Assembly: GCF_053078305.1 (NCBI RefSeq)
Contig: NZ_CP166879.1
DNA: 64,000 bases
Direction: 5' to 3' (one strand)
Position 1 is the stretch's first letter. Every line of letters starts with the position of its first letter. The position numbers were made by a program, and so were the translations under genes. The notes under the pieces were generated by a model, which was given only the letters and a program-made list of their open reading frames with translations, searched no databases and was not told the origin of the DNA. Below are positions 33,646 to 34,362 of the stretch, piece after piece.

Positions 33646-34362
33646 TAGGCCTGATAAGACGCGTTAAGCGTCGCATCAGGCGTTGATGTCGGATGCGGCG
33701 TAAACGCCTTATCCGACCTACAAAATCACGCTAAATCAGGCTATTGCGCTGTCTGGCGTAGGCCTGATAAGACGCGGTAAGCGTCGCATCAGGCATTGAT
33801 GTCGGATGCGGCGTAAACGCCTTATCCGACCTACAAAAATTACGCTAAATCAGGCTACTGCGCAGTCTGGCGTAGGCCTGATAAAACGCATTAAGCGTCG
33901 CATCAGGCATTGATGTCGGATGCGGCGTAAACGCCTTATCAGACCTACAAAAATTACGCTAAATCAGGCTACTGCGCGGTCTGGCGTAGACCTGATAAGA
34001 CACGTTAAGCGTCGCATCAGGCATTGATGTCGGATGCGGCGTAAACGCCTTATCCGACCTACAAAAATTACGCTAAATCAGGCGACTACGCAGTCTGGCG
34101 TAGGCCTGATAAGACGCACCAGCGTCGCATCAGGCATTGATGTCGGATGCGGCGTAAACGCCTTATCCGACCTACAAAATCACGCTAAATCAGGCTATTG
34201 CGCTGTCTGGCGTAGGCCTAATAAGACGCGGCAAGCGTCGCATCAGGCATTGATGTCGGATGCGGCATAAACGCCTTATCCGATCTACAAAATCACGCTA
34301 AATCAGGCTATTGCGCTGTCTGGCGTAGGCCTGATAAGACGCACCAGCGTCGCATCAGGCAT
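33646..34362. repeat. Tandem array of about 7 REP/BIME units (about 112 bp each) between convergent yjcO and gltP
   Basis: ggcctgataagacgcg..gcgtcgcatcaggc / gatgcggcgtaaacgccttatccgacctacaaaa plus acgctaaatcaggctattgcg spacer, repeated starting at about 33649, 33762, 33878, 33990, 34097, 34207, 34329. Confidence 0.85.

Follow-up and report, generated by a model that had tools for sequence, protein, structure and literature searches.

REP clusters of Escherichia coli and the gltP-yjcO locus

REPs of E. coli are combined into mosaics known as BIMEs. In BIME-1 (RIB/RIP), one Y and one Z1 REP form a single-copy pair around the long, conserved L linker, in which an IHF site is often found. BIME-2 repeats Y+Z2 pairs in tandem and has the short S linker together with flanking motifs of type s, l or r. 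Atypical BIMEs are chimeras that mix motifs of both kinds (y, z1/z2, L, S, s, l, r) and occur in several tandem copies, and BIME copy number differs from strain to strain (PMC3333891). The REP325 array, located between yjdM and yjdN, is the element on which naRNA4 was defined (PMC4550694). naRNA4 has been described as an HU-binding RNA, processed to about 77 nt, and the role of its family in HU-dependent condensation is disputed (PMC4550694; 10.64898/2026.03.23.713779). REP325 has also been described as an attenuator that depends in part on Rho and as an element that stabilises the mRNA upstream of it (preprint 10.64898/2026.03.23.713779).

A REP cluster between gltP and yjcO has been used experimentally and, almost certainly, is the one catalogued as REP321. 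'B319', a partial BIME of MG1655 gltP-yjcO, served as a substrate of TnpA_REP in vitro and was cleaved at four sites between C and T in its linker (Ton-Hoang et al. 2012, PMC3333891). A preprint on the mobilome lists EcoCyc REP321a-k (eleven REPs) among large REP clusters, places REP321 at most 15 nt from its upstream gene and gives the RAREFAN prediction that REP321 is a RAYT-associated REPIN. According to the J53 genome paper, the K-12 strain J53 lacks 'part of REP321' relative to MG1655.

We analysed a stretch of 64,000 nucleotides (contig NZ_CP166879.1 of assembly GCF_053078305.1; hereafter the window), in which the original prediction had placed a tandem REP/BIME array at 33646-34362 between convergent yjcO and gltP. 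Tandem Repeats Finder (TRF) recovered a single array at 33645-34362 (period 114, 6.3 copies, 93% matches, 0 indels, score 1192), and the gene ends at 33643 and 34400 bore out its position in the space between the two genes, whose names were taken from the RefSeq annotation of orthologous loci (Table 1). About seven units of about 112 bp had been expected. The units are indeed tandem and 112-114 bp long, but there are six full ones (113, 114, 114, 114, 112 and 113 bp), followed by a partial unit with the Y REP alone.

At the yjcO end, the stop codon is separated by 1 nt from the GTAG of the first REP and by 5 nt from the stem of that REP. At the other end, the short perfect hairpin next to gltP is kept in the tail of every allele examined; in a minus-strand fold of 34325-34410 (-43.5 kcal/mol for the whole stretch), this hairpin and the last Y REP both formed. 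An open reading frame at 34034-34270 was rejected as protein-coding, in agreement with its earlier dismissal as an artefact: no CDS inside the array is annotated at any RefSeq locus fetched, and the whole stretch is missing from many genomes.

Table 1. Features of the array and its surroundings in the window
Feature	Coordinates	Strand	Basis or remark
yjcO (Sel1-repeat protein)	32954..33643	+	TAA stop 33641-33643; RefSeq annotation, orthologous loci
Whole tandem REP/BIME array (6 full units + terminal Y REP)	33645..34362	.	TRF and unit register; MG1655 gltP-yjcO BIME orthologue
Unit 1: Y 33645-33681 (tail toward yjcO), 6-nt linker, Z2 33688-33721, L-like spacer 33722-33757	33645..33757	.	Rfam naRNA4 75.2 bits, minus strand
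IHF-like core AATCAGGCTATTG (perfect WATCARNNNNTTR), unit 1	33734..33746	+	Identical copies: 34188-34200 (unit 5), 34301-34313 (unit 6)
Unit 2: Y 33758-33794, Z2 33801-33834, variant 37-nt spacer 33835-33871 (core AATCAGGCTACTG)	33758..33871	.	Rfam 77.3 bits
Degenerate core AATCAGGCTACTG, unit 2	33848..33860	+	Also 33962-33974 (unit 3); two mismatches to WATCAANNNNTTR, TTR half-site broken
Unit 3: Y 33872-33908, Z2 33915-33948, variant 37-nt spacer 33949-33985	33872..33985	.	Rfam 65.1 bits
Unit 4: Y 33986-34022, Z2 34029-34062, variant 37-nt spacer 34063-34099 (core AATCAGGCGACTA)	33986..34099	.	Rfam 69.7 bits
Degenerate core AATCAGGCGACTA, unit 4	34076..34088	+	TTR half-site lost
Unit 5: Y 34100-34135, Z2 34142-34175, K-12-type 36-nt spacer 34176-34211	34100..34211	.	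Rfam 81.3 bits
Unit 6: Y 34212-34248, Z2 34255-34288, K-12-type 36-nt spacer 34289-34324	34212..34324	.	Rfam 65.5 bits
Terminal lone Y REP	34325..34360	-	REP detection; sole REP remaining in 0-unit alleles
Perfect 10-bp G+C-rich hairpin ATTGCCGGGG / CCCCGGCAAT	34369..34393	.	Inverted repeat between array and gltP stop codon
gltP (glutamate/aspartate:proton symporter)	34400..35713	-	Convergent with yjcO; RefSeq annotation, orthologous loci

The orthologue in MG1655 is the gltP-yjcO intergenic region at 4,295,795-4,296,435, with 5.3 units and 11 REPs. Locus, flanking genes, terminal Y REP and hairpin are all equal in the two, and so is the unit (Y, 6-nt linker, Z2 with a GTCGG/CCGAC stem variant, 36-nt spacer). 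The window differs in having six full units, compared with five in the MG1655 reference and four in other K-12 strains, and in the 37-nt spacer variant (ACTG or ACTA core) of units 2-4. Several observations identify the array with REP321: the eleven REPs in MG1655, the distance of at most 15 nt to the upstream gene, the J53 report, and the numbering, as REP325 (~1700) is followed in the window by REP loci at ~4635, 7817 and 9960 and then by the array, an order that fits the number 321. The partial loss reported for J53 also agrees with the exact 113-bp unit difference that we measured in W3110, BW25113 and MC4100. The label REP321 is a strong inference from counts, locus order and the J53 report rather than from the EcoCyc record. 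In both identity and class it is nearly certain that the array represents the REP cluster already known from gltP-yjcO in E. coli and that it is an atypical BIME amplified in tandem. The element is thus not new: it is already catalogued (REP321), has been used experimentally (B319) and belongs to a well-described class.

Anatomy of the units and homology of the spacer

Employing a REP detector, we found 13 REPs, 7 of type Y and 6 of type Z. They measure 34-37 nt, all have a CTAC tail and alternate strictly as Y(-)/Z(+), the Y tails pointing to yjcO and the Z tails in the opposite direction. The gaps are 6 nt head to head and 36-37 nt tail to tail, so that each unit runs Y REP, short head-to-head linker, Z2 REP, tail-to-tail spacer. 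The REP stems were recovered as inverted repeats with GTAG tails. This layout, repeated in six units, upheld the expectation of two inverted REP palindromes plus a spacer per unit. The elements have the marks of REP/PU sequences, being imperfect palindromes of ~35 nt with a GTAG/CTAC tail, extragenic and present in many copies per genome (in E. coli genomes, REP-containing queries had a median of 14 matching places each), and their alternation and spacing are those of a BIME.

The REPs are of the long Y type and of a Z type with a GTAAAC loop (Z2-type, as in REP325). The head-to-head linker reads ATCAAT or ATCAAC and resembles that of a doublet at 44816-44893. The Z stem has GTCGG/CCGAC in place of GCCGG/CCGGC; structural alignment shows a compensatory pair here, U-A in 6/6 units versus C-G in REP325 and other doublets. 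On either strand the units fold as two very stable hairpins (z-scores -4.8 to -5.9); unit 5, for example, gave -49.9 kcal/mol on the plus strand and -48.6 kcal/mol on the minus strand (z-scores -5.8 and -4.8).

Based on an Rfam search, six minus-strand matches to RF02564 (naRNA4) scored 65.1-81.3 bits, all above the 59.5-bit gathering threshold, and the minus strand, sense for gltP, gave the stronger matches. REP325 is separately present in the window at 1675-2160 (period 100, 4.8 copies, Rfam 86-111 bits) between yjdM and yjdN, and the possibility that the array is REP325 itself was rejected. Tandem Z2-linker-Y doublets and a two-hairpin architecture are common to both. The period is 100 bp in REP325 and 113 bp in the array, the head-to-head linker 13 nt versus 6 nt, and the tail-to-tail spacer 17 nt and unrelated to L versus 36 nt and L-like; REP325 lies within an operon of co-directional genes, whereas the array lies between convergent ones. 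Judged by score and architecture, the array units are members of the naRNA4/REP325 family, with REP325 as a paralogue.

To compare the spacer with L, we fetched the BIME-1 elements at mog-satP and cgtA-dacB (layout Y-CTAC, 35-nt L, GTAG-Z1); an L linker probe matched verbatim at a median of at least 33 places per genome. Anchored at the Z tail, the K-12-type spacer equals L at 19/26 positions, a count reached in 0/100,000 shuffles, and in 19/20,000 shuffles when any ungapped offset was allowed. Gapped alignment upheld the homology for all six spacers. Homology covers the 26 nt nearest the Z REP, with the A tract and the IHF-like core among them; the 10 nt next to the Y REP show no relation to L. 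The homology points to an origin of the 36-37-nt spacer in the L linker that binds IHF in BIME-1, a detail that fits the description of atypical BIMEs as chimeras in the literature and is not a discovery in itself.

The array shares with BIME-1 (e.g. mog-satP, cgtA-dacB) the tail-to-tail REP geometry around a linker of ~35 nt. BIME-1, however, is single-copy, with a short Y and a Z1 whose loop is GTGAAC, whereas the array has six tandem units with a long Y and a Z2 whose loop is GTAAAC. With BIME-2 (e.g. sucC-sucB, tldD-yhdP) it shares tandem alternating Y/Z2 REPs, a short S-type head-to-head linker and copy-number polymorphism; its tail-to-tail linker is L-like and appears to differ from the s, l and r types. 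The array is counted as an atypical (chimeric) BIME because it combines BIME-2-like REPs and a short linker with an apparently L-derived tail-to-tail linker, here in six copies. The RIP/BIME-type layout proposed earlier was therefore right as to a REP/BIME array with an L-homologous spacer and wrong as to the RIB/RIP (BIME-1) type, which was rejected on account of the Z2 REPs, tandem copies and short head-to-head linkers.

Both WATCAANNNNTTR and WATCARNNNNTTR are in literature use as forms of the IHF consensus. The spacer core AATCAGGCTATTG has one mismatch to the former and none to the latter, and its register is that of the ATTCAATATATTG core in real BIME-1 L linkers, which itself has one mismatch to WATCARNNNNTTR. 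The likeness to an IHF core suggested by the original prediction was thus confirmed, though not its presence in each unit: units 1, 5 and 6 carry AATCAGGCTATTG, whereas units 2 and 3 carry AATCAGGCTACTG and unit 4 carries AATCAGGCGACTA. In the rest of the window, perfect WATCARNNNNTTR (WATCAR-type) matches occur at a background of 0.17 per kb.

Copy-number alleles and their history

Unit number was found to be polymorphic, as anticipated: natural alleles range from 0 (a single Y REP) to about 8 units (Table 2). The 0-unit allele consists of one Y REP followed by a 40-nt tail. A 44-nt spacer probe matched in 2,646/5,426 complete E. coli genomes, at 1-8 places (median 3). In an evenly spaced sample from a flank-to-flank search, 24 of the 59 chromosomes had the 0-unit span, as did 7/10 further contigs encoding an identical YjcO protein. 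About half of E. coli genomes therefore lack a full unit and hold a single Y REP only; at least one Y REP was kept in every allele seen.

Table 2. Intergenic length and unit content of gltP-yjcO alleles
Intergenic length	Content	Strains
77 bp	one Y REP only	05-3629
177 bp	1 unit (short spacer)	O157:H7
302 bp	2 units	1919D3
416 bp	3 units	BL21(DE3)
530 bp	4 units	W3110, BW25113, MC4100
641 bp	5 units	MG1655 reference
756 bp	6 units	window
~828 bp	~7 units	B2-type strains PG20180057, SSGNw1

The intergenic regions of W3110, BW25113 and MC4100 are mutually identical. Compared with them, the MG1655 reference carries an additional unit, an exact tandem duplicate of 113 bp, and lacks CG in the first Z loop. 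Within the pedigree of laboratory K-12 strains, one unit has therefore been gained, unless the other strains lost it in parallel. Units within alleles show concerted evolution. By megablast, the variant spacer of units 2-4 matched none of the 5,426 complete E. coli genomes, no identical allele was found among complete E. coli genomes, and the flanks of the window reach at best 99.5% identity to any complete genome; the exact allele is thus unrepresented among them. An array is also present at the orthologous locus of E. whittamii and Escherichia sp. E1V33, with flanks 93-95% identical to those of the window, so the array predates E. coli. The 0-unit alleles are best read as collapses to one Y REP.

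The array probably grows and shrinks in whole 113-bp units through recombination or slippage between units, possibly aided by TnpA_REP (RAYT), the enzyme that cleaved the B319 linker from the MG1655 locus in vitro. Such unit-wise gain and loss would generate the natural alleles, from the single Y REP to about eight units.

Candidate roles of the array

By analogy with other REP arrays, especially REP325, the most likely role of the array is that of a two-way 3'-UTR hairpin barrier and attenuator, for which we put the chances at about even. As one blended explanation, identity and class together with this RNA-level role are probable. Transcription entering the array from either convergent gene would form stable REP hairpins that halt degradation by 3'-to-5' exonucleases and, in part via Rho, attenuate read-through; as a result, the yjcO and gltP mRNAs would both be stabilised and convergent antisense transcription limited. 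Polymerases reading through from gltP would copy the array in the naRNA4 sense. Because the first hairpin begins 5 nt after the yjcO stop codon, it may also dampen the translation of yjcO. REPs located at most 15 nt from a stop codon reportedly affect translation of the upstream gene, an effect that is cited in the mobilome preprint and ascribed to Liang and colleagues in 2015. Convergent gene pairs with a REP in between show higher expression, consistent with two-way termination and protection from degradation (10.64898/2026.03.23.713779), and REP hairpins define the protected 3' ends of Rho-dependent transcripts (PMC6061677).

Three observations count against the hairpin barrier. The single Y REP of about half the genomes implies that extra units are dispensable, and they may be neutral; REP effects are strongly context-dependent (10.64898/2026.03.23.713779); and in a promoter and terminator consensus scan of 33400-34600, no terminator-like or promoter-like site within the array exceeded shuffled expectation. 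A paper on transcript 3' ends makes no mention of the locus. Another reading is that the array is an essentially selfish or neutral REPIN doublet, amplified by RAYT activity and unequal recombination, whose unit number has no host function and which owes its persistence to doing no harm in a gap between convergent 3' ends. We regard this as possible though rather doubtful. It would account for presence or absence of units and the wide range of copy numbers, for the exact unit apparently gained within the laboratory K-12 pedigree and for the concerted evolution of units, and it is in line with cleavage of the gltP-yjcO linker (B319) by the RAYT in vitro (PMC3333891) and with the RAREFAN classification of REP321 as a RAYT-associated REPIN (mobilome preprint). 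On the other hand, the array is kept at one locus across Escherichia species, a compensatory change maintains its stems, no allele was seen without a Y REP, and REPs generally have measurable effects on neighbouring genes (10.64898/2026.03.23.713779; PMC6061677). Neutrality and the readings that invoke IHF, gyrase or a naRNA4-like RNA are not mutually exclusive.

If each L-derived spacer were a functional IHF site, sharp bends would alternate with REP pairs, and the array could organise local DNA or aid termination of convergent transcription, as proposed for RIB/RIP (BIME-1); this is unlikely to be its main role. IHF binding to K-12-type spacers is nonetheless plausible: the spacer is homologous to L with the core in the L register, an IHF binding site is a frequent feature of L linkers (PMC3333891), AATCAGGCTATTG fits WATCARNNNNTTR better than the L core does, the core is preceded, 7 nt upstream, by an A4 tract such as L also has, and the core is intact in 5/5 spacers of MG1655 and kept in K-12 form in E. 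whittamii and Escherichia sp. E1V33. Against this, three of the six cores in the window lack the TTR half-site, the core in B2-type alleles reads CATCAGGCTATTG or CATCAGGCTATTA (CATCAG, with C at the W position), the 24-nt spacer of the O157:H7 allele has a 12-nt deletion taking out exactly the core, the spacer is missing altogether from about half of genomes, and the surroundings of the core are G+C-rich. As judged from these alleles, the IHF-like site is clearly not under uniform constraint across E. coli. The text and supplements of Kasho 2021 do not mention gltP or yjcO, the text of Prieto 2012 does not mention REPs, and the IHF ChIP-exo paper has nothing on REPs. We consider it equally unlikely that the array works chiefly as a topological barrier, at which gyrase would bind and cleave Y REPs as in BIME-2 and positive supercoils between the convergent genes would be absorbed or insulated. 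Y+Z2 REPs with short head-to-head linkers between convergent genes would suit such a function, and gyrase cleavage sites are over-represented in BIME-2, mostly at y-type REPs and independently of transcription; however, cleavage occurs in only a subset of BIME-2 elements (PMC6379681), gltP and yjcO are absent from the gyrase Topo-seq supplements searched, and the tail-to-tail linker of the array is L-like, apparently not a BIME-2 flanking type. Least probable of all, and very improbable, are naRNA4-like small RNAs made by gltP read-through that would bind HU, bridge cruciform DNA and condense the nucleoid, as proposed for REP325 in the original model (PMC4550694). All six units score above the naRNA4 gathering threshold in the gltP-sense orientation and have the two-hairpin architecture of REP325. 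Yet a 2026 preprint, with an author of that model, found neither a stable HU-naRNA4-cruciform complex nor Hi-C contacts between REPs, saw the nucleoid unchanged upon deletion or overexpression of REP325 and put the RNA at about 1-2 copies per cell (10.64898/2026.03.23.713779), and half of E. coli genomes have no units.

As a discovery the array has small value, since it is a catalogued element and already a biochemical substrate, and copy-number polymorphism of BIMEs has been described before. For annotation, its Rfam 'naRNA4' matches mark generic Z2-Y REP doublets and not one specific gene. The array also explains why resequenced K-12 genomes repeatedly show false variant calls and differing assemblies at gltP/yjcO. 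There is a slight chance that it acts as a heritable stepwise 'dial', in which L-derived IHF sites alternating with cruciform-prone REP doublets tune gltP/yjcO between lineages. If so, each 113-bp unit gained or lost would shift IHF and gyrase loading and the strength of the hairpin barrier, and the one-unit gain of MG1655 and the core-deleted O157:H7 allele would be functional variants, not noise. In any case, the natural alleles of the locus form a series from 0 to about 8 units, some having the IHF-like core and others lacking it, which is usable for studying the effects of REP arrays on convergent genes and the binding of IHF by L-derived linkers.

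Array units and other REP elements in the window

In all six Z REPs of the tandem REP/BIME array (33688-34288), the stem reads GTCGG/CCGAC, as compared with GCCGG/CCGGC in REP325. This compensatory swap, U-A for C-G, is fixed array-wide, which suggests that the array Z REPs form a Z sub-lineage of their own and go back to the amplification of one founder. The same stem variant is also present in the REPs at 4635 and 10007.

Other elements in the window are listed in the table. The units of REP325, the reported source of naRNA1-6, match the Rfam naRNA4 model (RF02564, gathering threshold 59.5 bits) at 86-111 bits on the plus strand. 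Two further REP doublets also score above this threshold; thus, the naRNA4 family model catches generic Z-Y doublets, REP325 being one among them. Six repeats have been described for REP325 of MG1655; given the number of units found here, the copy number may differ between the window and MG1655 at this locus too. The ORF directly downstream of the SECIS element is the point at which the mechanical ORF list resumes fdhF, the fdhF ORF being broken at the UGA that encodes the selenocysteine in formate dehydrogenase H.

Other REP and RNA elements located in the window
Feature	Position	Rfam match	Remark
REP325	1675-2160		yjdM-yjdN; 4.8 units of 100 bp
REP doublet	4635-4718	naRNA4 at 4638-4718, 69 bits	
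REP doublet	9960-10042		
SECIS element	31125-31179	RF01988, 87 bits	directly upstream of ORF 31181-32860
REP doublet	44816-44893	naRNA4 at 44819-44890, 77 bits	
sraL, Hfq-binding sRNA	52128-52268	RF01408, 153 bits	

Copy number and variant calls in K-12

The yjcO-gltP intergenic regions of W3110, BW25113 and MC4100 are identical to each other. Relative to these strains, the MG1655 reference (4,295,795-4,296,435) possesses one additional, exact 113-bp unit; a CG is missing from the loop of its first Z REP. The one-unit difference reflects either a copy-number change that arose among K-12 strains in the laboratory or a quirk of the reference assembly. Part of REP321 has been reported missing from J53.

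In an evolution study, a sub-clonal 'C->T' at gltP/yjcO (MG1655 coordinate 4,296,060) was called repeatedly in independent populations at frequencies of 0.16-0.28 (PMC11510482), and 'rep321e' similarly recurs among the variants of engineered strains (PMC3985617). Coordinate 4,296,060 lies inside the MG1655 array, equivalent to that of the window. Most likely, both calls reflect mis-mapped reads, or gene conversion between units that are nearly identical, and not selected mutations.

K-12-type units of this array also make up the whole of a 240-bp contig (NZ_JAAIYA010000177.1, coverage 0.53) in the assembly of the myxobacterium Pyxidicoccus caerfyrddinensis. This contig is almost certainly E. 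coli contamination.

Spacer variants

The spacers of units 2-4 (33835-34099) are of a 37-nt variant, AAAAATTACGC...ACTG or ACTA, for which megablast returned zero matches among 5,426 complete E. coli genomes; in the same collection, the flanks of the window showed at best 99.5% identity to any genome. The lineage of the window therefore lies outside this collection and may be Shigella.

O157:H7 strain 4276 carries a one-unit allele (intergenic region at 395-571 of its locus sequence) with a spacer of 24 nt. A deletion of 12 nt (gltP-sense strand: AATAGCCTGATT) takes out exactly the IHF-like core, so this core-deleted allele provides a naturally occurring negative control for IHF binding.
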